Numbered from the stretch's first letter, positions 26,234 through 45,896 are shown. The stretch: DNA of 64,000 nucleotides from Gemmatimonadales bacterium (GCA_035251445.1 DATFEG010000156.1:3528-67527); one strand, 5' to 3'. Numbers and translations are program-made. Notes: a model not told the origin generated them from the sequence alone.

Positions 26234-28141
26234 ATGGACCTGTCGCAGTACGCCGAGCTGTTCCTGGCTGAGAGTCGGGAGCACTTGAGCGCCTGCAATC
26301 AGCTGCTGCTCGAGTGGGAACGCCGGCCATCGTCTCCCGAGCCGGTGAGCGGGATCTTCCGCGCGGTGCACACGATGAAAGGGATGGCGGCGACCATGGG
26401 ATATGGTCGCGTTGCCGACCTCGCGCATCGCATGGAGAATCTGCTGGACCAGCTAAGGCGCGGCGGCAAGCCACCGACTGATGCTACTCTGGAACTGCTC
26501 TTCCGTGCGACCGACGCGTTGGAGAAAGCGGTCGCTCTGGCGGTGGCCGGCCGCGAGCGCGAGCTCGACATCGCGTCGCTCGTCGCAGAATTTGACCACG
26601 CTGTCTCGGCCGGCGCTTCACCCGCCGCCGCTTCATCTACCGTCGCCTCATCTACCGTCGCCTCACCTCCCGTCGCCTCATCTCCCGTCGCCTCATCTCC
26701 CGTCGCCTCACCCGCTCGCCTCATTCACGTAGCCATCCGCCCTGAAACGCCGTTAAAAGGCGGCCGCGCCATGCTCGTGCTTCGTAAGGCGCAGACCCTG
26801 GGGACGGTGCAGCGGGTTCAGCCGCCCCCCACAGCGTTCGAGTCGGACGATTTCGATGGGAATGTGGCGTTCGAGCTGCACAGCTCCGCTGCGTCCCCTG
26901 AGATCGAGGCGGCGCTGCATGCGGTCGGCGACGTGGAGCGCGTCTCGATCGGCGGTAGTGAGGGCCGAGTCGATGACGCCGCGGGCGGGCGCAGCCGGCA
27001 CATCCGCGTCGACTTACGTCGCCTGGATACGCTGATGGACCTGATCGGGGAGCTCGTGACCGAGCGCGGCCGTCTGAACGAGGTGGCGGGCCGCTTGGCT
27101 GGTCAGGATCAGGCGATCGACGATATCGCGGTCCAGATCTCGCGCCTGTCCGCCGATCTCCAGAACGAGATCATTCAGGCACGCATGACGCCGGTGTGGC
27201 AGATCTTCGACCGTTTTCCGCGGCTCGTGCGCGACGTCGCGCGCCAGCTGGACAAAGACGTCGCGTTGCGCGTGGAAGGAAAGGAGATCGAGCTTGATCG
27301 GGCCATTCTCGACGAGCTCGGTGACCCGTTGGTGCACCTGCTGCGGAATGCCGTCGATCATGGAATCGAGCCACCCGCTGAACGCAAGCGGCACAAGAAG
27401 AACCCCGAAGGCCAGATCGTGCTCGCCGCGGTCCGTGAGCGCAACAGCGTCGCGATCAGCATCTCCGATGACGGCCGCGGTATCGATCGAGCGAGCATTC
27501 TCCAAAAAGCGAAGCGCGAGGGGATCGTGTCACCGCATGTCGAGTCGCTGTCCGACGATCAGCTCCTGCGCGTGCTCGCCCGGCCGGGCTTCACGACGGC
27601 CGGCACGGTCACGGCGGTGTCGGGCCGGGGCGTGGGAATCGATGTCGTCATGACGCGGCTCCGCACGCTCGGGGGATCGATCGAGATCCGGACGGAAACA
27701 GGGAAAGGCACGACGTTCATGCTGCGGCTTCCCGTCACGCTCGCCATCGTGCGCGCGCTGATCGCGGCCGTCGGGCACGAGCGGTACGCGCTGCCCCTGA
27801 CGTACGTCGCCGAAACGGTGGAGTTCGGTACGACCGCGCGGACGACGATGGAAGGGCGGGATGCGATCGTTCTGCGGGACCGCGTGGTGCCCCTCGTGGA
27901 TCTCCGCACGCTGCTGGGAACAAACGGCGGCGCTCCCGCGCCCCCTCCGCGGCGCCCCGTTATCGTGCTCGAAATGGGTGAGCGCCGCGCGGGTATCGTC
28001 GTCGACGGAATGCTCAGCCAGCAGGAGATTGTGGTGAAGGGATTCGACGCACCGCAGGGCACGTTGCCGATATTCAGCGGCGCCACGATCCTGGGGGATG
28101 GCGTGCCGACGTTGATATTGGATGCGGCGGGGCTGGTGTGA
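26234..28141 (+). CDS. cheA: Chemotaxis histidine kinase CheA
   Basis: It has an Hpt domain (FRAVHTMKGMAATMG), a dimerisation region, an HATPase domain (N, G1, G2 boxes) and a C-terminal CheW-like domain. A repetitive Ala/Ser/Pro linker follows P1. Confidence 0.95.
   Translation: MDLSQYAELFLAESREHLSACNQLLLEWERRPSSPEPVSGIFRAVHTMKGMAATMGYGRVADLAHRMENLLDQLRRGGKPPTDATLELLFRATDALEKAVALAVAGRERELDIASLVAEFDHAVSAGASPAAASSTVASSTVASPPVASSPVASSPVASPARLIHVAIRPETPLKGGRAMLVLRKAQTLGTVQRVQPPPTAFESDDFDGNVAFELHSSAASPEIEAALHAVGDVERVSIGGSEGRVDDAAGGRSRHIRVDLRRLDTLMDLIGELVTERGRLNEVAGRLAGQDQAIDDIAVQISRLSADLQNEIIQARMTPVWQIFDRFPRLVRDVARQLDKDVALRVEGKEIELDRAILDELGDPLVHLLRNAVDHGIEPPAERKRHKKNPEGQIVLAAVRERNSVAISISDDGRGIDRASILQKAKREGIVSPHVESLSDDQLLRVLARPGFTTAGTVTAVSGRGVGIDVVMTRLRTLGGSIEIRTETGKGTTFMLRLPVTLAIVRALIAAVGHERYALPLTYVAETVEFGTTARTTMEGRDAIVLRDRVVPLVDLRTLLGTNGGAPAPPPRRPVIVLEMGERRAGIVVDGMLSQQEIVVKGFDAPQGTLPIFSGATILGDGVPTLILDAAGLV
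26633..26720 (+). repeat. 15-nt in-frame tandem repeat (about 5.8 copies) in the CheA P1 linker
   Basis: The unit tcatctaccgtcgcc and its variants encode SSTVA SSTVA SPPVA SSPVA SSPVA SP. Confidence 0.92.
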
Positions 28142-28257: not shown

Positions 28258-28875
28258 GTGGAAGACGTTCGTGATCTAAAAGCACTGCAGCTCGATGCGC
28301 TCAAGGAAGTCGCCAACATCGGCGCGGGTCACGCGGCGACCGCACTGTCGCAGCTGACGCAGCGCCGCGTGATGATCTCCGTTCCCGAGATCAACATCGC
28401 GCGACTCGAAGACGTCGCTGGCGTACTCGGCGATCCTCAGGAAGTGGTGGCCGCCGTGTTGATGCACATGCTCGGCGACTTGACCGGGCGGACGCTGCTG
28501 CTCTTTCCCGAGCCCGTCGCACGGCGGCTGTGCGACATGCTTCTCAAGCGCCCACTGGGAACAACCAAGGAATTTGGCACGCTCGAGCAATCCTGTCTGA
28601 AGGAGTCCGGCAACATTCTCTCGGGTGCCTACATGAACGCGTTGTCGGAATTCATGGGCATGCTGCTCCTGCCGTCCGTGCCGAGTCTCGTTGTCGATCT
28701 TTCGGCGGCGGTCTTGACGACGACGTATTTGAATTTCGGGCACGACCGCGACGTCGTCTTTTGTGTCGAGACGGAATTCAGAATCGACAGCCGGGACGGC
28801 CTGCGCGGTCATTTCCTGCTCCTGCCCGATCTGGCGTCTCTCAAGGCTATTTTCGACGCCATCCGCTTGACTTGA
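28258..28875 (+). CDS. cheC: CheC-family CheY-P phosphatase
   Basis: It has two D/S-x3-E-x2-N-x22-P active-site motifs (DALKEVANIG...VP and SCLKESGNIL...VP). It starts with GTG, and GGGAG lies 7 nt upstream. Confidence 0.85.
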   Translation: MEDVRDLKALQLDALKEVANIGAGHAATALSQLTQRRVMISVPEINIARLEDVAGVLGDPQEVVAAVLMHMLGDLTGRTLLLFPEPVARRLCDMLLKRPLGTTKEFGTLEQSCLKESGNILSGAYMNALSEFMGMLLLPSVPSLVVDLSAAVLTTTYLNFGHDRDVVFCVETEFRIDSRDGLRGHFLLLPDLASLKAIFDAIRLT

Positions 28876-32719: not shown

Positions 32720-33551
32720 CGACATCCGCGCGCTTTCCGCGCAGCTCGCACAGGACCCGCAGAGTCTGGTCTTCCTGCGCCTCGGTGAAGCGCTGCGCCG
32801 CAAGGGCCAGCTGGATGCGGCTCTGCGTGTGGCGGTCAACGGCCTCGAGCGGCATCCGCACCTGGCCGACGCGCACGATCTCTACGCCCGGGTGCTGACC
32901 GATAAGCACGATTACGAGCGGGCGTTCGACGAATGGGACATGGCCGTCCGCATCGCCCCGAAGCACACCGGGGCTCTGAAAGGGCTCGCGTTTCTCTATT
33001 TCAAGGTCGGGGACCTCGCGCAGGCCGAAGCGCACCTCGAGGCCGCGCGCAAAGTGGAGCCGGATGATCCGAGCATCGACCAAGCGTTTGAAATGATTCG
33101 CGGCGGTGCCAAAGCAGTTGCCGCTCCCCCCCCCTCGCCGCCGCCTCAATCGCCGCCCTCCGCCGCCCCAGCGAGCGGCGGGACTCTCGATGAGGCACGA
33201 GTGTTCGCCGGCCTCGACGGCGCCAATGAAGGCCTGCTCCTCATCGACGGCGCGGGGCGAGTTCTCGGCGGCGCGTTGCGCGACAAGTCCGGCACGGATG
33301 TGACCGACGCGGTCGCGGCGTACCTTGGAGGTGTCTCCCAGGAGGCGGCGCGCACGGCAAAGCTGCTCGGCCTCGGCGCGTGGAATGGACTCTCGGCCGA
33401 AGGTCAGCAGGGGAACGTGCATCTCGCCCATCCCACGGCCGACGCTCTCTTGCTGGTCGTGCGCGAGCGCGGCGTTCCGCTCGGCCGGCTCACCATTTTG
33501 GCGCAGCGGGCCACCCTGATGGCGCGTCGCTGGTTGGAGAAAGAAACGTGA
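32712..33551 (+). CDS. TPR + Roadblock/LC7-like fusion protein
   Basis: The TTG at 32712 overlaps the preceding gene by 8 nt. N-terminal TPRs and a PPPSPPPQSPP linker are followed by a C-terminal ~110 aa with the Roadblock-like pattern (GLLLIDGAGRVLGG...ALLLVVRERGVPLGRL). Confidence 0.62.
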   Translation: MADDIRALSAQLAQDPQSLVFLRLGEALRRKGQLDAALRVAVNGLERHPHLADAHDLYARVLTDKHDYERAFDEWDMAVRIAPKHTGALKGLAFLYFKVGDLAQAEAHLEAARKVEPDDPSIDQAFEMIRGGAKAVAAPPPSPPPQSPPSAAPASGGTLDEARVFAGLDGANEGLLLIDGAGRVLGGALRDKSGTDVTDAVAAYLGGVSQEAARTAKLLGLGAWNGLSAEGQQGNVHLAHPTADALLLVVRERGVPLGRLTILAQRATLMARRWLEKET

Positions 33552-33895
33552 GTGCCGCGCTCGACCTGATCACGCGCGTCCGCGGAGTGCGCGGGGCGAT
33601 GCTCGTCTCAGCCGAGGATGGGCTCATCGTCGCCGAACAGTTGATGGAAGGCATCAAGGGCCGGGCGGTGGCCGCGTTGGCGGCGAGCCTCGCGGGCCGG
33701 CTGCAGCGCGCGATGGCGGCCGCGGGCATCGGCTCGAGCGTATTTTGGCACTTGCAAGGCGAGCAGGGGGCGTTGCTGGTCGTCCCGGGTGGCACCGCCG
33801 CGGGAGGCATTTTGGTCGTCGCCGTCGCGGAGCCCGACGTGAACATCGGACTCGTGCGACTGGAGCTGCTGCGCGCCGCCGAGGCGTTTGTATGA
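33548..33895 (+). CDS. Roadblock/LC7 domain protein
   Basis: The GTG at 33548 overlaps the preceding stop as GTGA. The 115-aa ORF has the classic Roadblock pattern VRGVRGAMLVSAEDGLIVAE...GILVVAVAEPDVNIGLVRLEL. Confidence 0.72.
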   Translation: MSAALDLITRVRGVRGAMLVSAEDGLIVAEQLMEGIKGRAVAALAASLAGRLQRAMAAAGIGSSVFWHLQGEQGALLVVPGGTAAGGILVVAVAEPDVNIGLVRLELLRAAEAFV

Positions 33896-34368
33896 GCCCG
33901 CACACGCGCGCGGTCGAGAGCTGGACGCTGCAGCCGCTCACCGATTTCGTACGCGAGGCCTCGGTCCGCATGGTGCTGGTGTTGACCCCAGCGGGGCAGG
34001 TGTTGGCGCAGTCGGGCTTTTCGCGCGCAGTCGACGTGATGTCGGCGGCAGCGCTCGCGGCAGCGATCGTCGCGTCCACCGGCGAGCTGGCGCGCCAGCT
34101 GCGACAACCGCCGTTTGCTGCACTGAGCCACCAGGGCCGCAAGCACGGGTTCTTCCTCGCGTCCTCTTCGTCCGAGCGCGGGACGCTGGCGGTGCTCGCC
34201 GTGTACGATCTCGACGTTTCATCGCTCGGGTTGGTGCAGTTATTCTATGAGCAACTTGCAGCGGACCTGAAGGCGGCCAGCCCCAAAGGTGCCGTACCGA
34301 AGCAGGTGCTGGCCGCTGACTTCGAGCGCGAGCTCACGGACAGCCTCAATACGCTGTTTGGGAGATAG
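33892..34368 (+). CDS. mglB: MglB-like Roadblock protein (putative MglA GAP)
   Basis: The ATG at 33892 overlaps the preceding stop as ATGA. The 158-aa ORF lies immediately upstream of mglA, as in the Myxococcus mglBA operon. SLGLVQLFYEQLAADL and the C-terminal TDSLNTLFG mirror MglB SLGLVRLRIKKASDEL and DDIDNLFSE as I recall them. Confidence 0.68.
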   Translation: MSPHTRAVESWTLQPLTDFVREASVRMVLVLTPAGQVLAQSGFSRAVDVMSAAALAAAIVASTGELARQLRQPPFAALSHQGRKHGFFLASSSSERGTLAVLAVYDLDVSSLGLVQLFYEQLAADLKAASPKGAVPKQVLAADFERELTDSLNTLFGR

Positions 34369-34370
34369 CC

Positions 34371-34973
34371 GTGTCCCTGGTCAACTTCACGAGCCGCGAG
34401 ATCACCTGCAAAATCGTCTACTACGGACCGGGCCGGTCCGGGAAGACGACCAATCTCCATTACATCTACGAGCGCGTACCGGAGACCCGTCGCGGCCGCA
34501 TGGTGTCGCTCGCCACGCAGACCGACCGCACGCTGTTCTTCGATTTCCTGCCGATCGACCTAGGTCAGATCTCCGGCTTTTCCACGCGCTTTCAGCTCTA
34601 CACCGTGCCGGGGCAGGTTTACTACAACGCCACTCGGCGACTCGTCCTGCAGGGCGCCGACGGTGTGGTGTTCGTTGGCGACAGCCAGGCGCGCCAGCTC
34701 GACGAGAATATCGAGAGCCTCCAAAACCTCCACAGCAACCTGCTGGAACACGGCGTCGACGTGCGCACGATGCCGCTGGTGATGCAATACAACAAACAGG
34801 ACCTGCCACGCGAGCTGATTCTCACGCCCGCCGAGCTGGACGACTCGCTGAACTTTCGCTCGGTGCCGTCCTTTTCGGCCGACGCGCTCCACGGCAAGGG
34901 AGTATTCGAGACACTGAAGAGCATCTCGGAGCTCGTGCTGAAGAAGCTGGCTGCGGGGAGCCCGGCGGCATGA
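34371..34973 (+). CDS. mglA: MglA-family Ras-like small GTPase
   Basis: The 200-aa ORF has REITCKIVYYGPGRSGKTTNLHYIY (P-loop), DRTLFFDFLP, YTVPGQVYY (switch 2) and QYNKQDL (NKxD). It is near-colinear with M. xanthus MglA. Confidence 0.92.
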   Translation: MSLVNFTSREITCKIVYYGPGRSGKTTNLHYIYERVPETRRGRMVSLATQTDRTLFFDFLPIDLGQISGFSTRFQLYTVPGQVYYNATRRLVLQGADGVVFVGDSQARQLDENIESLQNLHSNLLEHGVDVRTMPLVMQYNKQDLPRELILTPAELDDSLNFRSVPSFSADALHGKGVFETLKSISELVLKKLAAGSPAA

Positions 34974-36937
34974 CCACCACGCTCAACCCCCGCTTCACGT
35001 TCGACACCTTCGTGGTGGGCGCGGCCAACCGCCTGGCGGTCACTGCCGGCCGGACGGTGGCCGAGAATCCCGGCTTCGCCTACAACCCGCTCTTCATCTA
35101 TAGTGGGTCTGGTCTCGGAAAGACGCATGTCATGATGGGGATCGGCCACGCGGCCAAGTCGCTCGCGCCGCAGCTGAACATCGAATACCTGACGTTGGAC
35201 GAATACGTCGAGGCATTTCACGCCGCCATCGCCGCGGGGCAGGGCGACGCCTTCCGGCGGCGCTTCCAAAACGTGGGCGTGCTGCTCGTCGACGACGTGC
35301 AATTCCTCACGAACCGCAAAGAGATGCAGGCCGAGCTGCTACGCCTGACCGAAGCGCTGCAGCAGGCCGGCCATCAGATTGTGTTGGCCAGCGACCGGCC
35401 GCCCGCCGAAATCGCTGACCTCGACGAACGGCTGATTTCCCGGTTCTCCGGCGGTCTGGTTGTCGACATCGGGGTCCCGGACTATGAGACGCGCGTCGCG
35501 ATTTTGCGGCGCAAAGCGGAGGGGCGGGGGATCGCGTTCCAGCCGGGTGTGCTCGAGACGATTGCGAAAATCGAGTTCCCGAATGTGCGCGAGCTGATGG
35601 GTGCGCTGAACCGGGTTGTGGCCTTCCAGGCCGTGCACGACTCGCCCGTCAACGAAGAAGCGGTGCGCAAGGTGCTCGGCGTCCCGGCCGCTGCCTCATT
35701 GGCCGCTGCCTCATCGGCCGCTGCCTCATCGGCCGCCGCCTCTCCGGCCGTCGCCTCACCCGACGAGTTCTCGCAGTTTCTCACTGACGTCACCGCCAAT
35801 GTGGGAAAGGCCGTCGAGGCCTGGCGCGCGCGCGTGGCCGAAGCGGTGATGCGTTGGCAGGGGGAAGGCTATCGTACCGGACGTCTCGAGCAGCTCCTGG
35901 ATCGAAACAAGCCGGCGGCGGTGGACGACGAGATCGACGCCTACGTACGGGATGTGGAGCGGCTCAAGGCGCTCGAGGCGGAAGTCGCGACGCTGGATCC
36001 GCGGGTCGCGGGTGACAAAGTCTTCCACGATCCGGACCGCATGGACGAAGCCGAAGCGGCCGCCGCCCGGGTGCGCGAGGGCGCGGCGCCGCCGCCTGCC
36101 CCGTCGGGTGCGTTTCCGCTCGAAAGTTTTCGCGCGGGCCCGTCCAACGAGGTCGCGCTCAGCGCGGCGCGCGATGTCATTGCGAAACCGGGCAAGAAGT
36201 ACAATCCGCTCGTCATCGTCGGCAACAGCGGGCTGGGGAAGACGCACCTCCTGAACGCAATCGGCCTGGAGCTGTCGAAGAAAAGAGGCGCGATCGTGGC
36301 GTGTCTGTCCACGCAGGCGTTTGTGGACGAGCTGATCGCGGCGATCGACGGCAACCGCGTGGATTGGTGGCGCGCACGCTATCGGCGGTGCACGGCGCTC
36401 GTGCTCGATGACATCCAGCTTCTCGCCGGCAAGCAGCGCACGCAGGAAGAGCTGTTCAATCTCTTCAACCAGTTCCTCGACGCCGAGCGCCAACTTGTGT
36501 TCTCCGCGCCCGCGCATCCCAAGACCCTGGAAGGGCTGGAGGAGCGCATTGTGTCCCGGCTCGAGGGCGGGCTCGTCGCGGAGCTGGGTGAGCCCGACAA
36601 GGACGTGCGCCGCAGCGCGCTGGAGGGCCTGCTCCGGCAGCAACGCGTGATGACGGATTCCGCGTTGCTGGATTATCTCGCCGACCGCCCGGTGGATTCT
36701 GTCCGCAGCCTGACGGCACTCGTGCAGCGGGTCCTCGAGGCGGCGGCCGCGCAAGACGCGCCGGTCACGGCGGCTCTCGCGCGGGACGTGCTCGAAGGCT
36801 CAGTTGCGGCGCGCCGCTCGCTCGGTGCCCGGACCAGCGGCCTCGTGGTCTCGAGCGCGGGCGGCGTGCGCAGCCGCGAAAAGATGGTGTGGGATTGGCC
36901 GACGGCCGCCGACCGCGTCATTGAGGACATCCGCTGA
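34970..36937 (+). CDS. Tandem DnaA-like AAA+ ATPase (two Bac_DnaA-type modules, no DNA-binding domain IV)
   Basis: The ATG at 34970 overlaps the mglA stop as ATGA. Module 1 has NPRFTFDTFVVGAANRLA, Walker A GSGLGKTH, Walker B LLVDDVQFL, LASDRPP, SRFSGGLVVDI and NVRELMGALNRV. Module 2 has ESFRAGPSNEVA, GNSGLGKTH, LVLDDIQLL, SAPAHP, SRLEGGLVAEL and SVRSLTALVQRV. A repeat linker and a coiled-coil-like segment separate them. The protein ends without a DnaA_C helix-turn-helix. Confidence 0.8.
   Translation: MTTTLNPRFTFDTFVVGAANRLAVTAGRTVAENPGFAYNPLFIYSGSGLGKTHVMMGIGHAAKSLAPQLNIEYLTLDEYVEAFHAAIAAGQGDAFRRRFQNVGVLLVDDVQFLTNRKEMQAELLRLTEALQQAGHQIVLASDRPPAEIADLDERLISRFSGGLVVDIGVPDYETRVAILRRKAEGRGIAFQPGVLETIAKIEFPNVRELMGALNRVVAFQAVHDSPVNEEAVRKVLGVPAAASLAAASSAAASSAAASPAVASPDEFSQFLTDVTANVGKAVEAWRARVAEAVMRWQGEGYRTGRLEQLLDRNKPAAVDDEIDAYVRDVERLKALEAEVATLDPRVAGDKVFHDPDRMDEAEAAAARVREGAAPPPAPSGAFPLESFRAGPSNEVALSAARDVIAKPGKKYNPLVIVGNSGLGKTHLLNAIGLELSKKRGAIVACLSTQAFVDELIAAIDGNRVDWWRARYRRCTALVLDDIQLLAGKQRTQEELFNLFNQFLDAERQLVFSAPAHPKTLEGLEERIVSRLEGGLVAELGEPDKDVRRSALEGLLRQQRVMTDSALLDYLADRPVDSVRSLTALVQRVLEAAAAQDAPVTAALARDVLEGSVAARRSLGARTSGLVVSSAGGVRSREKMVWDWPTAADRVIEDIR
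35686..35760 (+). repeat. 15-nt in-frame tandem repeat (5 copies) in the linker of the DnaA-like protein
   Basis: The unit ggccgctgcctcatc and its variants encode AAASL AAASS AAASS AAASP AVASP. Its 3-prime end cgtcgcctcaccc is identical to the end of the CheA repeat. Confidence 0.92.
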
Positions 36938-38553
36938 TGGCGATCAAGGGCTCGCTGAAGGAAGCCTCGCTGCCGGACGTGCTCCAGCTGCTCGCGCTCG
37001 GGCAGAAAACCGGCTGCCTCTCGATCGCCGACCGCTCGAACTTCGGATACATCTACTTTGACCGGGGACGCATTGCCTACGCCTCCATCGTGAATCGCCG
37101 CGATCGGCTCGGCGACATTCTCGTCAAGCACGAGAAGATTTCGCAGGAGCAGCTGGATGCCGCGATCCACCGCCAGTCCAGGGAGCGCGACAGGAAGCTG
37201 GGCGAGATCCTCGTGACGCAAAGCGTGCTCACGCAACAGGAGCTCGAGCGCTACATGCGCATGCAGATCGAGGAATCGGTGTTCTACCTGTTCACGTGGA
37301 CACAAGGGACCTTCAATTTCGAGGCGGACGTTCGTCCGGAGCAGCAGGATTTCCTCGTCTCCATCAATCCCGAGTCGCTCCTGCTCGAGGGCGCGCGCCG
37401 CGTCGACGAATGGGGACTGATCGAGAAAAAGATTCCTTCCTTCGATCTCATCTTCCTCGTCGATCGGGACCGCCTCGCGATCAGTGATTCCACACTCACG
37501 GACGTGCAGGAGCGCCTGCTGGCGCTGCTGGACGGCTCGCGTGACGTGAATCAGGTCATCGAGGATTCCGGCCTGGGGGAGTTCGAAGTCGGCAAGGCGT
37601 TGTACGGCCTCGTCACCGCGGGCTTCCTGCATCGCGCGGGCCGAACGGCGGGAGCGGAAGACGCGAAGATGACGGACGCGCGCGTCGAAGAGCACCGTAA
37701 TCTCGGCATCGCCTTCTACAAGACGGGCATGTTGGACGAGGCCGCCCGGGAATTCCGCCGGGTGGCGGAGTTGCGGCCCGTCGACGGCAACGCGCACTTC
37801 TTCATCGGTCTCGTCGCGCTGAAGCAGGCGCGTTGGCGCGAGGCGATGGAGGCGCTGCGACTCGCGGCGGAGAAAGGCGGCTCGCGGCCCGCGGTGCTGC
37901 ACAACCTGGGACTCGCCTACGAGCAACTCGGTCGGCTCGCGGAAGCGGAGGCCGCCTACGCGGAGGCGGCGACGCGCGCCAAGACCGATCCGCGCGTGTA
38001 TGTGGGATGGGGTGTCGTGGCACTGAAGCGCGGTGACTACGCCGGTGCCGCGGGGCGACTCGACCGCGCGCGTGAGCTCTACGTGCAGCACGTGCCGCCG
38101 ATATGGTACTGGGCGCGCGTGCTGGCCGCCGCCGGCGCGGGCGATTTCGAGACGGCCGAGCAGATGGCGGGACAGGCGGTGGAGGCGTACCCGCAGAACG
38201 GCGTGCTACGCAACAACCTCGCCGTGCTGCTCGAGCTCGCGGGCGACTTGCCGCAGGCGGAGAATTTGGCGCGCGCCGCGCTCCGCGACGAGCCGTCACT
38301 GCCTCAGCTGTCCAAAAACCTCGGCGACCTCGCCTATCGCGCCTCCCGCTACGACGAGGCGTGGACTCTCTACCAGCGCGCGATCGAGCTCGCGCCCGAG
38401 TTGGGGGACGACATCTACTTCAAGCTCGGGAACATTGCGTACAAGCAAAACGACCGGCAGCAGGCGAGCGACCTCTGGCGCCGGGCACTCGAGCTGAATC
38501 CCAAGCACGAGCTCGTGAAAGCGAATCTCGACACGTTGAGCACGTTGTCGTGA
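36937..38553 (+). CDS. DUF4388 (PATAN-like) domain protein with C-terminal TPRs (second paralogue)
   Basis: Its N-terminus MAIKGSLKEASLPDVLQLLALGQKTGCLSI parallels MAIEGPLRELGIHDVFQLLDLSRKTGALRV in the gene at 31580. It has the same middle region and a longer TPR tail. Its start overlaps the preceding stop by 1 nt. Confidence 0.75.
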   Translation: MAIKGSLKEASLPDVLQLLALGQKTGCLSIADRSNFGYIYFDRGRIAYASIVNRRDRLGDILVKHEKISQEQLDAAIHRQSRERDRKLGEILVTQSVLTQQELERYMRMQIEESVFYLFTWTQGTFNFEADVRPEQQDFLVSINPESLLLEGARRVDEWGLIEKKIPSFDLIFLVDRDRLAISDSTLTDVQERLLALLDGSRDVNQVIEDSGLGEFEVGKALYGLVTAGFLHRAGRTAGAEDAKMTDARVEEHRNLGIAFYKTGMLDEAAREFRRVAELRPVDGNAHFFIGLVALKQARWREAMEALRLAAEKGGSRPAVLHNLGLAYEQLGRLAEAEAAYAEAATRAKTDPRVYVGWGVVALKRGDYAGAAGRLDRARELYVQHVPPIWYWARVLAAAGAGDFETAEQMAGQAVEAYPQNGVLRNNLAVLLELAGDLPQAENLARAALRDEPSLPQLSKNLGDLAYRASRYDEAWTLYQRAIELAPELGDDIYFKLGNIAYKQNDRQQASDLWRRALELNPKHELVKANLDTLSTLS

Positions 38554-39413
38554 GCCTGGAGGGCACGCTCGGGAAAGACGAACAGGGCTTCCACCAGCTC
38601 ACCGAGAAGGTCTCACGCGAGCGGGGCATCAGCTGCGGATCATACAAAGAAAAGTGTTTACGCCGCCGCATCGCGGTCCGCATGCGCGCGCGCGGCGTCC
38701 ACAGCTACGCCGATTACGCCCGGTTGCTCGATCGGGACGCGGGCGAATATCAAGAGCTCCTCGATGCGCTCACCATCAACGTCACGAAGTTCTTTCGCAA
38801 CGCCGAAACATGGGATGCGTTGCGTCCCTACCTTGTAGAGTTGTGGGCTGCCCGGCGGAGGGAAGGCGAGCCGCTCCGGATCTGGTCGGCGGGATGTGCC
38901 TCGGGTGAAGAGCCATACACGATCGCCGTGCTGCTCGCCGAAATCTTGGGCGAGGATCTCCGGCGGTCGTTCATCGATGCGACCGATATCGACCGGCTGA
39001 GCCTCGAGCGCACCCGCCAGGCGCAATACCCCGAGACCGCCTTCTCGGAGATGCCGGTGCACCTGAAGCGCCGCTACTTTGTGGACGGACGTCCGGTCGC
39101 GCGGATCGGCGAGGTCGTGCGGGTGCTCCACCACGATCTGACGCGGGAGCCGCCGCCGCGTTCCGTCTACGATCTCATCGTGTGTCGCAATGTCGCCATC
39201 TACTTCGAGCGCGACGCACAGGAGCGGCTGTATGGGACGTTCGCCACAGCCTTGCCGCCAGGCGGCGCGCTGCTGCTCGGGAAGGTCGAGACGCTGTTCG
39301 GCCCGGCGCGCGAGCGGCTCACACTCCTCGACCCGCGCGAGCGGATCTATGTGAAGCCGATCGGCAAAGCCTCGGCCCACCTCTCTGGAACCGAGAGGAT
39401 GGGTGAGGCCTGA
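38550..39413 (+). CDS. cheR: Chemotaxis protein methyltransferase CheR
   Basis: The GTG at 38550 overlaps the preceding stop as GTGA. It has the CheR N-terminal helical domain and the SAM site IWSAGCASGEEPYT. Confidence 0.9.
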   Translation: MSLEGTLGKDEQGFHQLTEKVSRERGISCGSYKEKCLRRRIAVRMRARGVHSYADYARLLDRDAGEYQELLDALTINVTKFFRNAETWDALRPYLVELWAARRREGEPLRIWSAGCASGEEPYTIAVLLAEILGEDLRRSFIDATDIDRLSLERTRQAQYPETAFSEMPVHLKRRYFVDGRPVARIGEVVRVLHHDLTREPPPRSVYDLIVCRNVAIYFERDAQERLYGTFATALPPGGALLLGKVETLFGPARERLTLLDPRERIYVKPIGKASAHLSGTERMGEA

Positions 39414-39421
39414 AGGAAATA

Positions 39422-39892
39422 GTGGTCACCGTGGCTGACTGGGCAGCCGAGCGCGGGGATGGAGTCCTGGTGACCCTGGGGCTCGGCTCATGTGTCGCCA
39501 TCATGCTGCATGATCCGGAGAGCGGGGCCGGTGCGCTGGCTCACGTGCTCCTTCCCTCGACCAGCCTGGCACGCGACACCAGCAATCGCGCGAAGTTTCC
39601 GGAAACCGCCGTGCCGCTGATGATTGAACGCCTCACAGCACTTGGCGCCGATCCGCGACGCCTGTGCGCAAAGCTCGCCGGCGGCGCCAGCATGTTCAGC
39701 CAGCTCGTTACGCCCGGCACGATCCAGATGGGTGAGCGCAACGTGCTCGCGGCGCGCACCGCGCTGCGCCGCGCTGCCATTCCCATCGTTCGCGAAGCGG
39801 TCGGTGGGGAGCTCGGCCGCAGCATCCGCTTTCATGTGAAGGACGGCCGCGTCGAGATTCGGTCGGTGGGCGCCGATGTCCAGGTGATCTGA
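39422..39892 (+). CDS. cheD: Chemoreceptor glutamine deamidase CheD
   Basis: The 156-aa ORF has the [13 protein letters not shown] catalytic Cys region and HVLLP. Confidence 0.88.
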
Positions 39893-39897
39893 CCGCC

Positions 39898-40998
39898 ATG
39901 CCATCCGAGCCGCGCCCGGCCGCCACCCGGCCCACGGTGCTCGTCGCCGACGACAGCGCCCTGATGCGGCGGGTGCTCGTCGATGTGCTCGGCGACGAGT
40001 TTCAGGTGGTCGCGACCGCACGCGACGGCATCGACGCGATCCGCAAGACCCACCGGTACAATCCCGACGTCGTCACGCTCGACCTCGAGATGCCGCAGCT
40101 CGACGGCCTCGGCGCCATCGGCTACATCATGTCGGAATCCCCGCGCCCCATCGTCGTCGTGAGCGCACACGCGGGGCCGGGCACAGCGACGGCCATCCGC
40201 GCGCTCGAGCTGGGTGCGGTCGAAATCGTCGCCAAGCCCCCACCGCCGGCTCACGCCCTCGCGCACTCGCGCGCCGCGCTCGCCACCTTGGGGCCTCAGC
40301 TTGTCACCGCGATTCATCGCGCGCTCGCAGCCGACGTTTCGCACGTCAAAGTGCTGGCTCGTCCACCGGCGCCCGTCGTGCATCCACCGGAGGTGGCATT
40401 GCGGGGCCGGGCGGGTCTGGTCGTTGGTGTTGCGGCGTCCACCGGTGGACCGCGCGCGCTCGCTGAGGTGATCCCGCGTCTGCCGACCGGCCGCGGCGCC
40501 GCGGTGCTCATTGTGCAGCACATGCCGCCCAAGTTCACGCGCAGTCTCGCCGAGCGACTCGATTCGATCAGCGCGTTGCGCGTTGTGGAGGCGGACGACG
40601 GAGCGCCGATCGTCGCCGACACGGCATACGTGGCGCCGGGCGATTATCATATGCGAGTGCGAACCGCTCACGATGGCCCGGTCATCGCGCTCGATCAGTC
40701 GACTCCCATCTGGGGCGTTCGTCCGGCCGCCGATCTCCTGTTCCACTCCATCGCGCAAGTGTACGGCGCGCGTGGCGTCGGTGTCGTGTTGACGGGGATG
40801 GGCCGGGACGGCGCGGAGGGGTTGCGCGCCATGCACGACGCAGGGGGCGCTGGTCTAGCCCAGGACCGCGAAACCGCCGTCACGCACGGGATGCCCGCGG
40901 CCGCGGTGCAGGCGGGTGGGGTCGATGCGGTGCTGCCGTTGGAGAAGATCGCGGACCGGGTCTGGGCGGAGTTGATGAAGAGGAATCCGCAGCGATGA
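39898..40998 (+). CDS. cheB: Chemotaxis response regulator protein-glutamate methylesterase CheB
   Basis: It has a receiver domain ([12 protein letters not shown]...TLDLEMP) and a methylesterase domain (ASTGGP, HMP, GMGRDGA). Confidence 0.93.
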
Positions 40999-41414
40999 AG
41001 GGCTATCTGCTGGTTCGCTCCGAGGGGAAAACCTACGGCCTTCCCGTCGCGCGCGTGCTCGAAGTCGGCGATGCGACGGAAGTGCTCGCCGTGCCGCGCA
41101 AGCTTGCCGCGGTGCGCGGGCTCACGCCACTGCGCGGCCGCCTGGTTCCGCTCATTCATCTCGGGGCTTTCCTGACGGGACAGGCAGCGCCTGACACAGG
41201 GCCCGCGGGCGTTAGAACGATCGTGCTCGTCGAGATCAAGGGCCGACACGTCGCGCTCGAGGTCGATGATGTCGACGCGGTGGTTCGAGAACAGCCGCTC
41301 CCCGTTCCCCACGGGCAGACGCTGCCGTGGGCGAGCGCAGTGGCGCCTCAAGGCCAGAGCGGCGGGCTCGTGCCGATTCTCGATCTCGACGCCTTGGGAG
41401 ATCGCATAGGATGA
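40995..41414 (+). CDS. cheW: CheW-like coupling protein (copy 2)
   Basis: The 139-aa ORF has the CheW-like pattern [21 protein letters not shown]...[12 protein letters not shown]. It overlaps cheB as ATGA. Confidence 0.78.
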
Positions 41415-41881
41415 ATCTTGCGGGCGCCGCCGGCGATGAAGTCCAGCTCGTGACCTTCAAGGTGGGCGGTCAGGATTTCGCGTTCAACATCTTTCAGGTC
41501 GAGCGCATCCTGCGCTACGAAGCGCCCGCGCCCTTGCCGAAGGCGCCCGAGTTTCTCGAGGGGGTGGTGCGCTACGGGGGCGGCGCGGTGCCGCTCATCG
41601 ATCTGCGCAAGCGACTGGGGACGACAGCCCCGCTGCGCGAAGACACTCGCACCATCATTCTCGAGTTCGAGGGAGGCAAGATCGGCATCATCGTCGATGC
41701 GGTGACTGAAGTACTGCAGGTGGCGGCGCAGTCCGTTACGCCACCACCGGGAATCGTGAAAGGCCTGGCCGCGGAATACATCGCCGGTCTCGTCGTGCAA
41801 AATGGGCGCACGATTATCGTGTTGAATACGAACAAGCTGCTGACTTCGCAGGAGAAACTGGCATTGCAGGGAGCGACGTGA
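41411..41881 (+). CDS. cheW: CheW-like coupling protein (copy 3)
   Basis: The ATG at 41411 overlaps the preceding stop as ATGA. It has the pattern LVTFKVGGQDFAFNIFQVERILRYE...VVRYGGGAVPLIDLRKRLG. Confidence 0.85.
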   Translation: MNLAGAAGDEVQLVTFKVGGQDFAFNIFQVERILRYEAPAPLPKAPEFLEGVVRYGGGAVPLIDLRKRLGTTAPLREDTRTIILEFEGGKIGIIVDAVTEVLQVAAQSVTPPPGIVKGLAAEYIAGLVVQNGRTIIVLNTNKLLTSQEKLALQGAT

Positions 41882-42744
41882 TGGTGGATTCGCCGGTTGC
41901 GGCACTGCGGCGGGAATACGACGCGATCGCGCGTCAGCTCGCGGGCGCGCCGGGCGCGGCCGAGCAGGAAGCGGCCAAGCGTGAGATCATCGCGTATTTC
42001 AAGAAGGTCGATGGCATGCTGGCGGAGCTCTCGCATCTGAAAGAGGACATCCGCCAACTCGTCGATCGCTACAAGCAACTCGCCGCCGACACCAAGCAGG
42101 CCGCGGCGCCGCAGTTCACTGGCGCGCGTCCGGCGGTGCACGCCGATCACATCGGCGCTTCCACGTTCATCGAAAAAGGATGGAGCCTGATCTCGTTGGG
42201 CGATCACGCCGGCGCGATTCAGGCGCTCACGAAGGCGCTGCAGCTGTCCCCGGGCGAGACGCAGGCGGAGAACCTGCTCGGATGGGCGCAGATGCTGAAC
42301 GAGTTATACGACGACGCGCTCCAGACGTTTTCCAAGGTTCTGATGAAGGAGCCCGCGAACTCGCTCGCACGAATCAATGTGGGCTACATCTGTCTGAAGA
42401 AAAAGATTTTTGGTGAAGCTATCGAGCACCTCTCGAAGGCCATCCGGCTCGATAACGACAAGAAAGCAACGCTGTACGCGCACTTCTATCTCGGGCTCGT
42501 GTATCTGCAGCGCGAGATGTACGAAGATGCGCAAGTGTTCTTCGAGAAGACTCTGAAGCTCGGTCCAAACCTGATCGAGGCGTACTACGAGCTGGGGCGA
42601 GCGCACTGGTTCACAGGCGATCAGCGCATGGCCAAGTCCATCTGGGAAGACGGCTTCAAGGCGAACAAGTTCAATCCGTGGGGCAAGAAGTGTCAGGAGA
42701 TGCTCGAGCTTGTCGCCAGGGGCGAGGAGCCGCCGCGAAACTAG
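41878..42744 (+). CDS. TPR-repeat protein (last gene of the che operon)
   Basis: The 288-aa ORF has an N-terminal coiled coil and C-terminal TPRs. Its start overlaps cheW3 by 4 nt. Confidence 0.7.
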   Translation: MMVDSPVAALRREYDAIARQLAGAPGAAEQEAAKREIIAYFKKVDGMLAELSHLKEDIRQLVDRYKQLAADTKQAAAPQFTGARPAVHADHIGASTFIEKGWSLISLGDHAGAIQALTKALQLSPGETQAENLLGWAQMLNELYDDALQTFSKVLMKEPANSLARINVGYICLKKKIFGEAIEHLSKAIRLDNDKKATLYAHFYLGLVYLQREMYEDAQVFFEKTLKLGPNLIEAYYELGRAHWFTGDQRMAKSIWEDGFKANKFNPWGKKCQEMLELVARGEEPPRN

Positions 42745-43613
42745 TCCTCATCGCCCTGCTGTTGCAGGCACCGACGGCCACCGAGGTCGGGCGCGTCACT
42801 GCGGTCGCGTGGCCCGGACAGGAGCGTCTCGCCACCGCCGTTGCCGAAATGGCGGACCACGCCACGGGATTTCCGGGCATCGGCCCATTGCCCGACCGGC
42901 CGATTCGCATCATCCTCGCGCCCACCCGCGAGCTCTATGATTCGCTCACGCGCGGGCGGTTGCCGCTGTGGAGCGAAGGCGCCGCGTTCCCCGAGGCCGG
43001 TACGATCGTCCTACTGTCCGATGGTCCGTCGGTCCAACGCTCCAACGCTCTTCGCCACGAGCTCGCTCACCTGGCGCTGCGGTGGCACGCCGGTCGACGC
43101 GCCCCGCTGTGGTTCGAAGAGGGGTATGCGGCGGTGGCAGCGCGGGAGTGGGATCGGCTCGACGCGCTGCAGCTCAACTGGCAGCTCGCCCGCGGCGTTC
43201 GGATGACGCTCGACGAAGTCGATCGCGCGTTACGTGGCGCCCGCGCGGACGCGCAGACCGGCTACGCACTTGCCGCAACGGCCGTTCTGTTACTCGAGCG
43301 GTGGGGAGGAGAGCGCGGTCTCGAGCCGCTGCTGACGAAGCTGGCGGGGGGCGCCTCGTTCGATGCCGCCCTGCGTGACACTTATCACATCACGGCGAGC
43401 GACTTCGAAGAGCGCTGGCACCGCGACGTCGCATCCCGGTACGGCTGGGTCGCCTGGGCGGGCGCGATGGGCTTCTTCTGGCTCGCTATCGGCGCGATCC
43501 TTGCTGCGCTCGTGGTGCTGCGTCGGCGGCGCCAGCGGGAAAAGCGCGCCGCGCTCGCGGCGCGCGATGCTGAGGAAAGCCAAGTGCTTGACGATCTTGG
43601 GATTAACGAATAG
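42678..43613 (+). CDS. Peptidase-MA-like (HExxH...EG) protein with C-terminal TM anchor
   Basis: The HELAH motif is followed 14 aa later by WFEEGYA, which fits a gluzincin/Peptidase_MA_2-like pattern. It has a C-terminal TM segment and an RRRRQREKR tail. The start is uncertain, because the track start overlaps the TPR gene by 67 nt. Confidence 0.55.
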   Translation: MGQEVSGDARACRQGRGAAAKLVLIALLLQAPTATEVGRVTAVAWPGQERLATAVAEMADHATGFPGIGPLPDRPIRIILAPTRELYDSLTRGRLPLWSEGAAFPEAGTIVLLSDGPSVQRSNALRHELAHLALRWHAGRRAPLWFEEGYAAVAAREWDRLDALQLNWQLARGVRMTLDEVDRALRGARADAQTGYALAATAVLLLERWGGERGLEPLLTKLAGGASFDAALRDTYHITASDFEERWHRDVASRYGWVAWAGAMGFFWLAIGAILAALVVLRRRRQREKRAALAARDAEESQVLDDLGINE

Positions 43614-43618: not shown

Positions 43619-43840
43619 GTGCCCTATATGCCTGAGCACGGGTTCGCGCGTTCTCGTCTGCGCTTTGGACCGAGGAACTATGTGGTCTTGGGCGCAGCAA
43701 TAGTGTCACTTGCACTTGGTTACTGGCGGTTGTCGCAGGGATCAACGACGCTCGCGCCGGTGCTGCTCGTACTGGGCTACTGCGTTTTGTTTCCGGTAGG
43801 CTTGGCCCTCCGCTTGCCCGAAAATGGCACGGGCGAATAG
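43619..43840 (+). CDS. Possible small two-TM membrane protein
   Basis: The 73-aa ORF has two hydrophobic segments. Its stop lies inside the 5-prime end of tRNA-Val, and a TTGACG-17-TAGACT promoter-like pair sits just upstream at 43588-43616. Support is weak. Confidence 0.3.
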   Translation: MPYMPEHGFARSRLRFGPRNYVVLGAAIVSLALGYWRLSQGSTTLAPVLLVLGYCVLFPVGLALRLPENGTGE

Positions 43841-43904
43841 CTCAGCGGTTCAGAGCGCCTGCCTTACACGCAGGATGTCGGGGGTTCGAATCCCTCTTCG
43901 CCCA
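43831..43904 (+). tRNA. tRNA-Val (anticodon UAC)
   Basis: I folded a 74-nt cloverleaf by hand. The acceptor is GGGCGAA/TTCGCCC, the anticodon arm is CCTGC-CTTACAC-GCAGG, and the T arm is GGGGG-TTCGAAT-CCCTC. Confidence 0.9.
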
Positions 43905-43938
43905 TTGGTGTAGCAGCCTGTAACGGAGGAAAGAATAG

Positions 43939-45750
43939 GTGAGAGCGTTATACGTGGTGTTGGCGCTGTCCGCGGCGGTTGTCGTACCGGCGACGGCGCA
44001 GCTCGCTGCGCCGCAGGCGCCGAGTCAGAGACTTCTCGTTTTGCCCTTCCAGGCGGCAGCCGCGGACTCGGCCGGCAGCATTGCGTTGGCCGACGCGGTG
44101 CGTGATCGCGTCACGGCTCTAACAAAGAATAAAGTCAGCGTGGTTCCGAAGGCCAAGCTGTGCGAAGCGCTAAAGGCCTCCGGGTTCCCGTGCGACGGGT
44201 TGCTCGAGGATCAGCAGTCGCGGCAGCTGGCGCGGTTTCTTCAGGTGCACTCCTTCGTGACCGGCTCGTACGCGAAGAAAGGCACCACGCTCGAGGCGGA
44301 GGTCCGTCTGAACGACATCGCCAGCTCGGGCATGGCGGGCGCGTTCAGGATGTCTGACGCCAATCCGGGCACGATTGCGGCGCTGGCCGAACTCATTGCG
44401 CAAAAGGTCGCGTCGATCGTGCGGCTCAGCGAGCCGATCCGGAATTGCAACGAGGAGCGCAAGAAGGGGCAGTTCAACCGCGCGCGCAATGAGGCAGGGA
44501 AGGCGTTGGCGGTCGATCCGAATTCCACTGGCGCGTGGCTCTGCATTGCGACGATTCACGAGGCCATGCGCCACCCAGTCGACAGCGTCATCGCGGCATC
44601 GAGGAACGCGCTCAAAGGTGACTCGTGCAGCGGCGTAGCGTGGGAAAACATCGCGCGTGGTTATCAGCAAAAGGGCGACACCGCGCAGATGATTGACGCC
44701 TTCATCTCACAGCTCTGCGCCGAGCCGAACAACATCAGCAAGTACCTGGGGATCGCGCAGCTGCTTCGCCAGCAGAAGAACTTTGACAAGGCTGTCGAGG
44801 TCCTCGACCGAGGTCTCGCGGTGGCGCCGAACGAGCAGCAGCTCACGGACCTGAAGCTCACCATCTGCAATGAAGCAGGTAAATACGCCTGCTCGGCGCA
44901 GGTTTTCTACGCAAAAGCGCAGCACGACACGGTCCTGCTCGCGGACACGATGTTCATCAAGCCGGCCATCGGCGCGGCGCAGCAGGCGTCGGACACGGTA
45001 GCGTTGGACTTCTTCACACGGGAATCGGTAAAGCGCTATCCGAACAATGCCAGTTTCGCACGCACTCGTGCGGCGTCGTATCAAATGCGCGGCAAGCCCG
45101 ACTCGGCGCTCGTCCTGTTGCTGGCCGCACTCAAGCTCGAGCCCAACGACGTCCCGACCAATTTGCAGATCGCGCAAACGATGGTCGACCGCGCGGTATG
45201 GGATACAGCCGCGGCGAACAGGGCGAAAGGCGATACCGCGGCGCAGGCTCGCATGCGCGCAGGTTTTGCGCAGAAGATCGATTCGGTCAAGCCCTATCTG
45301 CGTCCAGGTCTTGCGTCCAGTGATTCCACACAACGGCTTGCCGCCTCGGTGATCATGCTGACCGCCGGCTCCAAGTTGGCACAGGCCCAGGCGTACAGTG
45401 CCGCTTACCCGTGGCTTGATACGCTGCTTCAAGTGACCGCGCCGAGATCGTCGTCGGATACGGTTGGCCCCAAGCAACAGGTCCGTGTGAACGGCAGCTT
45501 CTGGTATGGACTGTCATCGGTGCTGACACTGCAGGGTCCGTACAAACACATGACCGAGGTCAAAGGCGCTGCTCGCTGTCCGACAGCGCGTGATGTCTTC
45601 GATCGGCTGACAAGGACGAAGAATGCACTGATGCTGGGACGTCGGGTGCATCCTCCAACGGCGGACCAGATGCTGGGCTTCGTCGCGCAGTACGAAAAGG
45701 CAAAGCCCCAGGTCCAGAAAGCGTATCAGTGCAAGCCGGCGATAAGTTGA
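43939..45750 (+). CDS. Secreted TPR-like/helical-repeat protein of unknown function
   Basis: The 603-aa ORF has the signal peptide MRALYVVLALSAAVVVPATAQ and helical repeat character. It starts with GTG and is bracketed by two tRNA genes. Confidence 0.6.
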   Translation: MRALYVVLALSAAVVVPATAQLAAPQAPSQRLLVLPFQAAAADSAGSIALADAVRDRVTALTKNKVSVVPKAKLCEALKASGFPCDGLLEDQQSRQLARFLQVHSFVTGSYAKKGTTLEAEVRLNDIASSGMAGAFRMSDANPGTIAALAELIAQKVASIVRLSEPIRNCNEERKKGQFNRARNEAGKALAVDPNSTGAWLCIATIHEAMRHPVDSVIAASRNALKGDSCSGVAWENIARGYQQKGDTAQMIDAFISQLCAEPNNISKYLGIAQLLRQQKNFDKAVEVLDRGLAVAPNEQQLTDLKLTICNEAGKYACSAQVFYAKAQHDTVLLADTMFIKPAIGAAQQASDTVALDFFTRESVKRYPNNASFARTRAASYQMRGKPDSALVLLLAALKLEPNDVPTNLQIAQTMVDRAVWDTAAANRAKGDTAAQARMRAGFAQKIDSVKPYLRPGLASSDSTQRLAASVIMLTAGSKLAQAQAYSAAYPWLDTLLQVTAPRSSSDTVGPKQQVRVNGSFWYGLSSVLTLQGPYKHMTEVKGAARCPTARDVFDRLTRTKNALMLGRRVHPPTADQMLGFVAQYEKAKPQVQKAYQCKPAIS

Positions 45751-45775
45751 AATGATCTGACCCCGCGTCTATATT
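45747..45775 (+). promoter_or_regulatory. Sigma70-like promoter candidate for tRNA-Asp
   Basis: TTGAAA (45747-45752), a 17-nt spacer and TATATT (45770-45775) sit 21 nt upstream of the mature tRNA 5-prime end. Confidence 0.45.
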
Positions 45776-45795
45776 CCGGCGCTCTGTCAGGGCTA

Positions 45796-45869
45796 GGGGC
45801 TGTAGCTCAGCTGGTTAGAGTGCCGGTCTGTCACACCGGAGGTCGCGGGTTCGAGCCCCGTCAGCCCCG
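45796..45869 (+). tRNA. tRNA-Asp (anticodon GUC)
   Basis: I folded a 74-nt cloverleaf by hand. The acceptor is GGGGCTG/CAGCCCC, the anticodon arm is CCGGT-CTGTCAC-ACCGG, the T arm is GCGGG-TTCGAGC-CCCGT, and the discriminator is G. Confidence 0.9.
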
Positions 45870-45896
45870 CTCAGCGTCGGACGATCATCCATGAAG

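Follow-up and report, generated by a model that had tools for sequence, protein, structure and literature searches.

The fla/che operon of Bacillus subtilis carries cheB, cheA, cheW, cheC and cheD, and lacks any mcp gene, i.e. a gene for a methyl-accepting chemotaxis protein (MCP). In Myxococcus xanthus 13 of the 21 mcp genes are located outside che operons (PMC3945109). The Frz pathway of that organism comprises the cytoplasmic MCP FrzCD, the CheA-receiver fusion FrzE, the dual-receiver protein FrzZ and FrzF, a fusion of CheR to tetratricopeptide repeats (TPR) (PMC3945109). A TPR protein of M. xanthus, SgmX, is an effector of the GTPase MglA, and PATAN proteins co-occur with it (PMC11580455). 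The survey of such GTPases by Wuichet and Sogaard-Andersen (2014) reports PATAN domains encoded next to MglA/MglB genes for some MglA proteins of groups 1 and 5; these include GAU_1409 of Gemmatimonas aurantiaca, whose context is tabulated as 'PATAN>MglA>-PATAN>', and no che genes are recorded in that neighbourhood (there is no CheA in the table) (PMC4316618). Here we analyse a che operon within 64,000 nt of DNA from Gemmatimonadales bacterium (GCA_035251445.1, DATFEG010000156.1:3528-67527), the whole of which is referred to as the window. It contains a full set of receptor-adaptation genes with no receptor gene beside them, and a complete MglA module is embedded among its che genes. We conclude that the region 38550-40998, containing cheR, cheD and cheB, is probably the working adaptation branch of a canonical receptor-dependent pathway, and that the genes for its receptors most likely lie at other sites in the chromosome.

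The che genes encode a complete pathway with intact catalytic residues

A first-pass annotation, made without database searches, had placed CheR, CheD and CheB at 38550-40998 and associated them with CheC and three CheW proteins. Comparison with Pfam shows both the identities and the coordinates to be exact (Table 1).

The catalytic residues of the adaptation enzymes are retained. CheB has D56, S164, H190 and D286 in the window and, without exception, in 64 orthologues. In CheR R98 and Y235 are invariant, while D154 is present in 65 of 66 sequences including that of the window, the single exception being D154N. The N-terminal arginine residues R53 and R59 of CheR are also conserved, as they are in receptor-directed CheR. 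CheD is matched to that of Thermotoga maritima (PDB 2f9z, E=1.6e-29), and in the window sequence the Thr/Cys/His triad is aligned and kept. The median identity of orthologues to the window sequence is 67% for CheR, 79% for CheD and 76% for CheB, compared with 71% for the housekeeping protein RsmH. The enzymes are under purifying selection, which implies that they have a substrate. To our knowledge the only known substrates of CheR, CheB and CheD are MCPs.

The remaining components of a canonical pathway are also present, i.e. a CheA with its domains and phospho-accepting histidine, the CheW adaptors and a CheY. CheA retains H48 and the glycines of its G1 and G2 boxes across 50 orthologues. D12, D13, D57 and K109 of CheY are invariant in 49 orthologues, with a median identity of 96%. 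CheW1 and CheW2 retain the E38/R62 pair (E. coli numbering). CheW3 is the nearest of the three to E. coli CheW (phmmer E=8e-23). Even so, CheW3 does not have this pair: R and G/Q stand at the positions aligned with E38 and R62, both in the window and in around 60 orthologues.

In type the pathway resembles that of Bacillus and Thermotoga ('F1-like'). CheC is matched to T. maritima CheC (1xkr/2f9z) with E=2.7e-30, and in the window it has an E-x2-N motif in both halves; together with the CheD triad and a CheA that has a P2 domain this resembles the core of the B. subtilis and T. maritima systems. The P3-P5 region of CheA scores 295 bits against T. maritima CheA (PDB) and 253 bits against that of E. 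coli, and the top full-length matches in a plasmid collection are from Bacillales, at around 34% identity; there were no Gemmatimonadota records among the CheA matches in that collection. Like the operon of B. subtilis, this one has adaptation genes together with cheC and cheD and lacks an mcp gene. It differs from both the B. subtilis and T. maritima systems in having three cheW genes, in the absence of flagellar genes within 68 kb (where no pilus or gliding genes were found either), and in the seven-gene block of MglA, Roadblock, PATAN, TPR and AAA+ genes that lies with a large TPR gene between cheC and cheR.

No receptor gene is present at the locus

The first-pass annotation had found no MCP gene in or near the operon, and several independent searches confirm this. 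No MCPsignal domain (PF00015) was found in a Pfam-A scan of all the called operon proteins and the six longest antisense open reading frames. For the 902-aa TPR protein that scan covered the best 25 of 32 matching families, and other tests for an MCP were therefore added. All stop-to-stop frames of the window that reach 30 aa were also searched with phmmer (--max). Here E. coli Tar and Tap gave nothing better than E=0.79, and E. coli CheA, CheW, CheR, CheB and CheY each matched their counterparts. A custom profile was constructed from 10 diverse MCP signalling domains (from E. coli, Ralstonia, Comamonas, Pseudoalteromonas, Phaeobacter, Rhizobium, Agrobacterium and Lawsonia). Its best match in the window had E=0.41, while in a leave-one-out control it recovered every withheld MCP at E<=4e-46.

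The search can be extended a little beyond the window, using a near-identical metagenome contig of 68 kb (described below). There was no MCPsignal among the precomputed Pfam labels of all the called genes on this contig, and the remaining 4 kb hold housekeeping genes only, which excludes an MCP lying just outside the window. It had been recognised at the outset that a signalling domain might lie hidden in an overlooked reading frame or within one of the TPR proteins; this is ruled out by the Pfam, Tar/Tap and profile searches. An MCP in or next to the cluster, which is one mark of a canonical chemosensory pathway, is thus absent. The same is true of relatives, as no MCP domain was found in 80 genome loci, 80 metagenome loci or two further contexts.

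The arrangement is conserved across the Gemmatimonadota

Relatives were collected by scanning one genome per species with the 655-aa ATPase encoded in the operon. This gave 167, and the loci studied were the best 80 of these (66-93% identity). Nearly all come from metagenome-assembled genomes (MAGs) of Gemmatimonadales or other Gemmatimonadota, together with two contigs titled Myxococcales and Thermoleophilaceae. MAGs that carry the operon include those with JBIOXD010000073.1 (whose AAA+ protein is 93% identical), CAVPHS010000004.1 and QHUZ01000020.1. Gene order was judged wherever a locus had enough flanking sequence. The order is rluD, cheW1, cheY, cheA, cheC, TPR, PATAN-TPR, TPR, Roadblock, Roadblock, GTPase, ATPase, double PATAN-TPR, cheR, cheD, cheB, cheW2, cheW3, TPR, peptidase, TPR and rsmH. 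All the genes from cheW1 through to the peptidase gene are present in 37 of the 80 genome loci, and both the rluD and rsmH flanks in 34. A 612-kb NCBI contig and metagenome loci of greater divergence also have this order, and the placement of the operon between rluD and the dcw cluster is conserved across the phylum, including Gemmatimonas phototrophica. Conservation extends to the less familiar genes. The 902-aa TPR protein has 61 orthologues with a median identity of 82%, the median for the 287-aa TPR protein is 84%, and the Peptidase_MA_2-like gene is syntenic in 53 loci.

A few loci depart from this pattern. In one divergent lineage (L092; JGI contig Ga0187893_10000014, 1-19800) rluD, cheC, cheR, cheD and all of the MglA module are found together with cheY and a cheA of reduced length; cheB, cheW2 and cheW3 are missing, and cheW1 can hardly be recognised, at 20 bits. 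Three others (L089, L090 and L096) lack cheW2. A further locus, from a Gemmatimonadota MAG (GCA_041483735.1, JBGPGH010000001.1, 15923-17628), has an extra gene after cheB encoding a 266-aa AAA_22 protein, and an enlarged CheW of 302 aa. Lastly, a low-GC Gemmatimonadetes MAG (L166; GCA_003697105.1) has a PATAN gene, a gene for a 241-aa protein and the AAA+ gene in succession, with no che genes; this context resembles the 'PATAN>MglA>-PATAN>' neighbourhood of G. aurantiaca (PMC4316618). The che part and the MglA module are evidently separable, since CheB, CheW2 and CheW3 are absent from L092 and all the che genes from L166. The minimal context of L166 and the absences in L092 make the MglA/PATAN/AAA+ block look like the older core, around which the che genes were wrapped.

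Receptor genes are unlinked to the orthologous locus of a cultured species

Gene data for G. phototrophica AP64 were taken from the RefSeq-based supplementary tables of a transcriptome paper (PMC9862903), and our statements on this cultured species refer to the part of those tables that was available. It has an orthologous locus at 1.873-1.881 Mb, in which an rluD-like gene is followed by cheW, a response regulator and, further on, a DUF4388 gene. Upstream are genes for FtsH (RS07705), a DUF2723 protein and YggS. The RluA-family synthase gene RS07750 (1,872,428-1,873,447) is overlapped at its end by the cheW gene RS07755 (1,873,383-1,873,853), just as in the window. The response regulator RS07760, three further genes and the DUF4388 gene RS07780 come next. 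The offset from cheW to the DUF4388 gene is +6271 bp in G. phototrophica and +6256 bp in the window.

At least three genes are annotated as MCPs in the same tables, RS00390 (94,124-96,154), RS03220 (743,674-745,389) and RS16675 (3,948,248-3,949,489) (PMC9862903). Each is more than 1 Mb from the orthologous locus. A CheA is listed as RS15835; this was considered as the orthologue and rejected, since it lies among GGDEF, EAL, glutamate synthase and HEAT-repeat genes and the orthologous locus is RS07750-RS07780.

The lack of a receptor gene had been presented in the first-pass annotation as an anomaly worthy of remark. With most of the M. xanthus mcp genes outside che operons, we consider it rather to be an ordinary arrangement, as unlinked receptor genes are common.

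The receptor genes most likely lie at other chromosomal sites

We favour the existence of receptors encoded elsewhere because the layout without an MCP is conserved, the catalytic residues are kept, and the MCP genes of G. phototrophica are unlinked. Of the two alternatives offered originally, a receptor encoded elsewhere is thus the better supported, albeit indirectly, and for a non-canonical input through the CheW, TPR and PATAN proteins we found no positive evidence.

Some observations weigh on the other side. The evidence on MCP genes comes from the cultured G. phototrophica, and so concerns a relative of the uncultured lineage of the window. Those of G. phototrophica could serve a different system, given the second CheA (RS15835) found elsewhere in the tabulated part of that genome. 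The sole evidence for a coupling of the Che proteins to MglA is the conserved co-operonic arrangement, and the MglA module is kept in L092 without CheB, CheW2 and CheW3, while L166 has no che genes at all.

It is unlikely that the pathway has no receptors of its own and uses the MCP arrays of another chemosensory system in the same genome, possibly a flagellar one. The tabulated genes of G. phototrophica do include a CheA in another context and dispersed MCPs. However, the operon has its own complete set of CheA, CheW, CheR, CheB, CheC and CheD, and a full set of this kind is usually the sign of an insulated pathway; moreover, such sharing would be a sub-case of the explanation that we prefer.

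Input without a receptor seems to us decidedly improbable. In this case no MCP would be involved, and CheA would be scaffolded and controlled either by the TPR/PATAN proteins acting with the three CheW proteins or by the MglA module. This would account for the absence of an MCP in or near the operon at any of around 90 Gemmatimonadota loci, and for the interleaving of the TPR/PATAN genes with che genes to which they are translationally coupled (as in the 4-nt overlap of the double-PATAN gene with cheR); the missing E38/R62 pair of CheW3 also points in this direction. Yet the pair is retained in CheW1 and CheW2, and the strictly conserved catalytic residues of CheR, CheB and CheD belong to enzymes without known substrates other than MCPs. 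Moreover at least three MCP genes are tabulated for G. phototrophica, a cultured relative that shares the locus. We know of no CheA system that is free of MCPs. There is likewise only a slight chance that both departures occur together in soil Gemmatimonadales, i.e. that CheA and CheW are organised by the TPR/PATAN proteins with MglA, MglB and the AAA+ protein in place of an MCP, and that CheR, CheB and CheD modify a non-MCP component.

It is very improbable, and without precedent, that CheR, CheB and CheD alone have been redirected to a TPR, PATAN or AAA+ protein of the operon, on which they would carry out methylation, demethylation and deamidation at Glu/Gln. In favour of this, cheR, cheD and cheB lie directly 3' of the double PATAN-TPR gene, their linkage to the module is constant, and L092 retains CheR and CheD despite missing CheB and two CheW proteins. 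Against it, neither Pfam nor the custom profile reveals an MCP-like signalling or methylation-helix domain in any operon protein, and the CheR has the two N-terminal arginines of receptor-directed enzymes.

An MglA polarity module is embedded between cheC and cheR

A complete MglA polarity module occupies 31580-38553 of the che operon. It comprises genes for a PATAN-TPR protein, a TPR protein, two Roadblock proteins, an MglA orthologue, a tandem AAA+ protein and a double PATAN-TPR protein. The large unassigned proteins of the operon had been described as all of TPR type; this has to be corrected, given the MglA orthologue, the two Roadblock genes and the 655-aa AAA+ protein.

The GTPase aligns with M. 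xanthus MglA at around 60% identity, with the GKT P-loop and the TDRTLFFD and TVPGQ segments kept, and its median identity to orthologues is 91%. The MglB-like Roadblock gene lies immediately upstream of mglA, so that a GTPase bearing the TVPGQ and TDRTLFFD segments adjoins a Roadblock MglB, as expected of an MglA/MglB module. The second Roadblock gene precedes that; the protein that it encodes (Roadblock protein 1) gave no match to MglB. In the Pfam analysis the PATAN domains are fused to TPR repeats only and never to a receiver, so these are not PATAN-receiver proteins of the kind represented by PatA, PixG and PilG. As in the PATAN-MglA/MglB neighbourhoods described previously (PMC4316618), the PATAN domains are encoded beside mglA and Roadblock genes; they differ from other PATAN regulators in being carried on TPR repeats and in lying inside a che operon. 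In view of the MglA, Roadblock and AAA+ genes, the TPR/PATAN genes seem to encode proteins that work with a polarity GTPase, and not substitutes for a receptor. The 902-aa TPR protein is a candidate scaffold or effector of the module.

The combination of a Che pathway with MglA, an MglB-like Roadblock protein and large TPR proteins comparable to SgmX is reminiscent of the Frz system of M. xanthus, which acts on MglA/MglB; the operon also shares with Frz (FrzA, FrzB) the possession of more than one CheW. Nevertheless we rejected an assignment to the Frz type, because Pfam reveals none of the architectures of FrzCD, FrzE, FrzZ or FrzF: the operon has no FrzCD-like MCP, no receiver domain in its CheA, no dual receiver and no TPR extension on its CheR of 287 aa. 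It differs further from Frz in the presence of CheC and CheD. Neither RomR nor RomX was seen in the operon, in which the only receivers are CheY and that of CheB; no search for them was made elsewhere.

We found no description of a Che-MglA operon in the searchable literature, where the only link between Gemmatimonadetes and MglA was the 2014 survey (PMC4316618). The fusion of che genes with an MglA module at the level of the operon thus appears to be undescribed.

The tandem AAA+ protein

The N-terminal half of the 655-aa AAA+ protein is related to domain III of DnaA (B. subtilis DnaA, 8bv3, E=6e-60 over aa 4-233) and the C-terminal half resembles Hda/DnaC (Hda E~1e-4 over aa 476-607). Each half has Walker A and B residues that do not vary in the family alignment. 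No match to DnaA domain I or IV (DnaA_N, Bac_DnaA_C) was found in this protein using Pfam and the PDB. We considered and rejected the possibility that it is the DnaA replication initiator, since the module resembling domain III occurs twice and domain IV was not found. The individual modules are thus of known type, i.e. DnaA domain III and Hda/DnaC, but in contrast to DnaA and Hda there are two of them in one chain and the gene lies beside mglA, as it always does.

A library-wide search reveals a family of around 650 aa (P0121-P0270) that has many full-length members with 31-55% identity. There is a family-specific motif in the C-terminal region, EK.VW.WP, which is a further difference from DnaA and Hda. 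All the named members are from Gemmatimonadota, including Gemmatimonadales and Gemmatimonadaceae MAGs.

A possible circuit

From what is known of these protein families, the unlinked MCPs would form arrays with the CheW proteins and CheA, and CheA should phosphorylate CheY and CheB. CheR would be expected to methylate the receptors and CheB to demethylate them, with deamidation by CheD. CheC would probably remove phosphate from phosphorylated CheY (CheY-P), shortening the signal, and bind CheD as it does in Bacillus and Thermotoga. The fusion of the genes into one operon suggests that CheY-P might act on the MglA/MglB switch and its PATAN-TPR, TPR and AAA+ partners. The circuit could then be a one-operon analogue of the path from Frz to MglA in Myxococcus, controlling the polarity of motility or of some other polar machine.

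A che operon that lacks a receptor gene is a common arrangement, adequately explained, and is of little importance taken alone. What is noteworthy is the whole, i.e. the bringing together of a Che pathway with MglA/MglB, PATAN-TPR and TPR proteins and a lineage-specific AAA+ protein in a single operon, in a poorly studied phylum that is dominant in soil. An independent lineage in which che and mglA genes are co-transcribed offers a second system for studying how a polarity switch based on a GTPase is reset by chemosensory output, and it nominates new candidate partners of MglA. The question can be put to experiment, because G. phototrophica is culturable and carries the orthologous locus.

Organization of the operon and its surroundings

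The operon is a single plus-strand unit of around 18.3 kb at 25324-43613, with 19 tightly packed genes (Table 1). As a check, the gene models were compared with the genes called on the ENA metagenome contig ERZ27257135:k141_2871824 (68 kb), which is 99.9% identical to the window and has one 15-bp indel relative to it, between ileS and cheC. CheA is 630 aa on the contig, compared with 635 aa in the window. With a difference of around 0.1% and the 15-bp indel, we take the window to be another assembly of a near-identical strain.

Table 1. Genes of the che-mglA operon, with positions counted from the first nucleotide of the window.
Product	Position	Strand	Evidence
CheW1, 176 aa	25324..25854	+	Pfam CheW E=2.3e-19; called on ENA contig
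CheY, single-domain response regulator, 120 aa	25865..26227	+	Pfam Response_reg E=1e-31
CheA, 635 aa; Hpt, P2, dimerisation, HATPase, P5/CheW	26234..28141	+	Pfam
CheC, 205 aa; CheY-P phosphatase, CheD partner	28258..28875	+	Pfam CheC E=7e-21
Large TPR protein, 902 aa	28872..31580	+	Pfam TPR families from N-terminus on; contig gene model
PATAN (DUF4388/PatA_N) + TPR protein, 379 aa	31580..32719	+	Pfam DUF4388 E=2.4e-32 + TPR
TPR protein, 279 aa	32712..33551	+	Pfam TPR_14, TPR_2, TPR_19; contig gene model
Roadblock/LC7 protein 1, 115 aa	33548..33895	+	Pfam Robl_LC7; PDB 7f8m Robl_LC7 protein E=2e-7
Roadblock/LC7 protein 2, MglB-like, 158 aa	33892..34368	+	Pfam Robl_LC7; M. xanthus MglB 6h5b E=1.2e-7
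MglA orthologue, small Ras-like GTPase, 200 aa	34371..34973	+	M. xanthus MglA 5ymx E=3.5e-73, residues 1-197
Tandem AAA+ protein, 655 aa	34970..36937	+	Pfam Bac_DnaA in two stretches + IstB_IS21
Double PATAN + TPR protein, 538 aa	36937..38553	+	Pfam DUF4388, two stretches, E=3.4e-39 + TPR
CheR methyltransferase, 287 aa	38550..39413	+	Pfam CheR_N + CheR, E=2.5e-44
CheD, receptor glutamine deamidase, 156 aa	39422..39892	+	Pfam CheD E=2e-28
CheB methylesterase with receiver, 366 aa	39898..40998	+	Pfam Response_reg + CheB_methylest E=9e-64
CheW2, 139 aa	40995..41414	+	Pfam CheW E=1.2e-17
CheW3, 156 aa	41411..41881	+	Pfam CheW E=1e-33
TPR protein (TPR287), 287 aa	41881..42744	+	Pfam TPR_1, TPR_2
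Peptidase_MA_2-like protein, 307 aa	42690..43613	+	Pfam E=3.9e-8

The start of cheW1 overlaps the 3' end of rluD by 8 nt, and the double PATAN-TPR gene shares 4 nt with cheR. The junctions within the unit range from -8 to +10 nt, the exceptions being the 116 nt between cheA and cheC and a 55-nt overlap of the TPR287 and peptidase genes. Such tight junctions fit a single translationally coupled operon. The Peptidase_MA_2-like gene, which overlaps the TPR287 gene at its 5' end and is followed by a gap of 217 nt and then tRNA-Val, is probably the last of the transcription unit.

The first-pass annotation had the flanks right in naming ileS, lspA and rluD upstream and the peptidase-like gene and tRNAs downstream. 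In full, the upstream flank consists of ileS, a DksA/TraR zinc-finger gene, lspA and rluD, and lies within a block of TMEM260-like, YggS, DivIVA, PNP, ileS, lspA and rluD genes (16018-25331). Downstream are tRNA-Val, a TPR gene, tRNA-Asp and then the dcw cluster (rsmH, ftsL, ftsI, mur genes, ftsA and ftsZ), which runs from rsmH to ftsZ at 45891-64000. Rfam identified three tRNAs and nothing else. In a scan of the operon for promoters and terminators the counts were no higher than in shuffled sequence.

The interval between cheA and cheC (28142-28257) is the sole sizeable intergenic gap of the operon, and contains the short palindromes ACACCCTAAAGGGTGT and GCCCTTAAGGGC. A 37-aa open reading frame called in this gap was rejected as a gene, as it is interrupted by stop codons in relatives and its coding is not conserved. 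A second related copy of the sequence is present on the opposite strand in another of the loci (L034), and the gap sequence may therefore be a repeat element.

The TPR gene between tRNA-Val and tRNA-Asp (43831-45870) encodes a protein of 603 aa with a hydrophobic N-terminus. It is syntenic and fast-evolving, with a median identity between orthologues of 49%.

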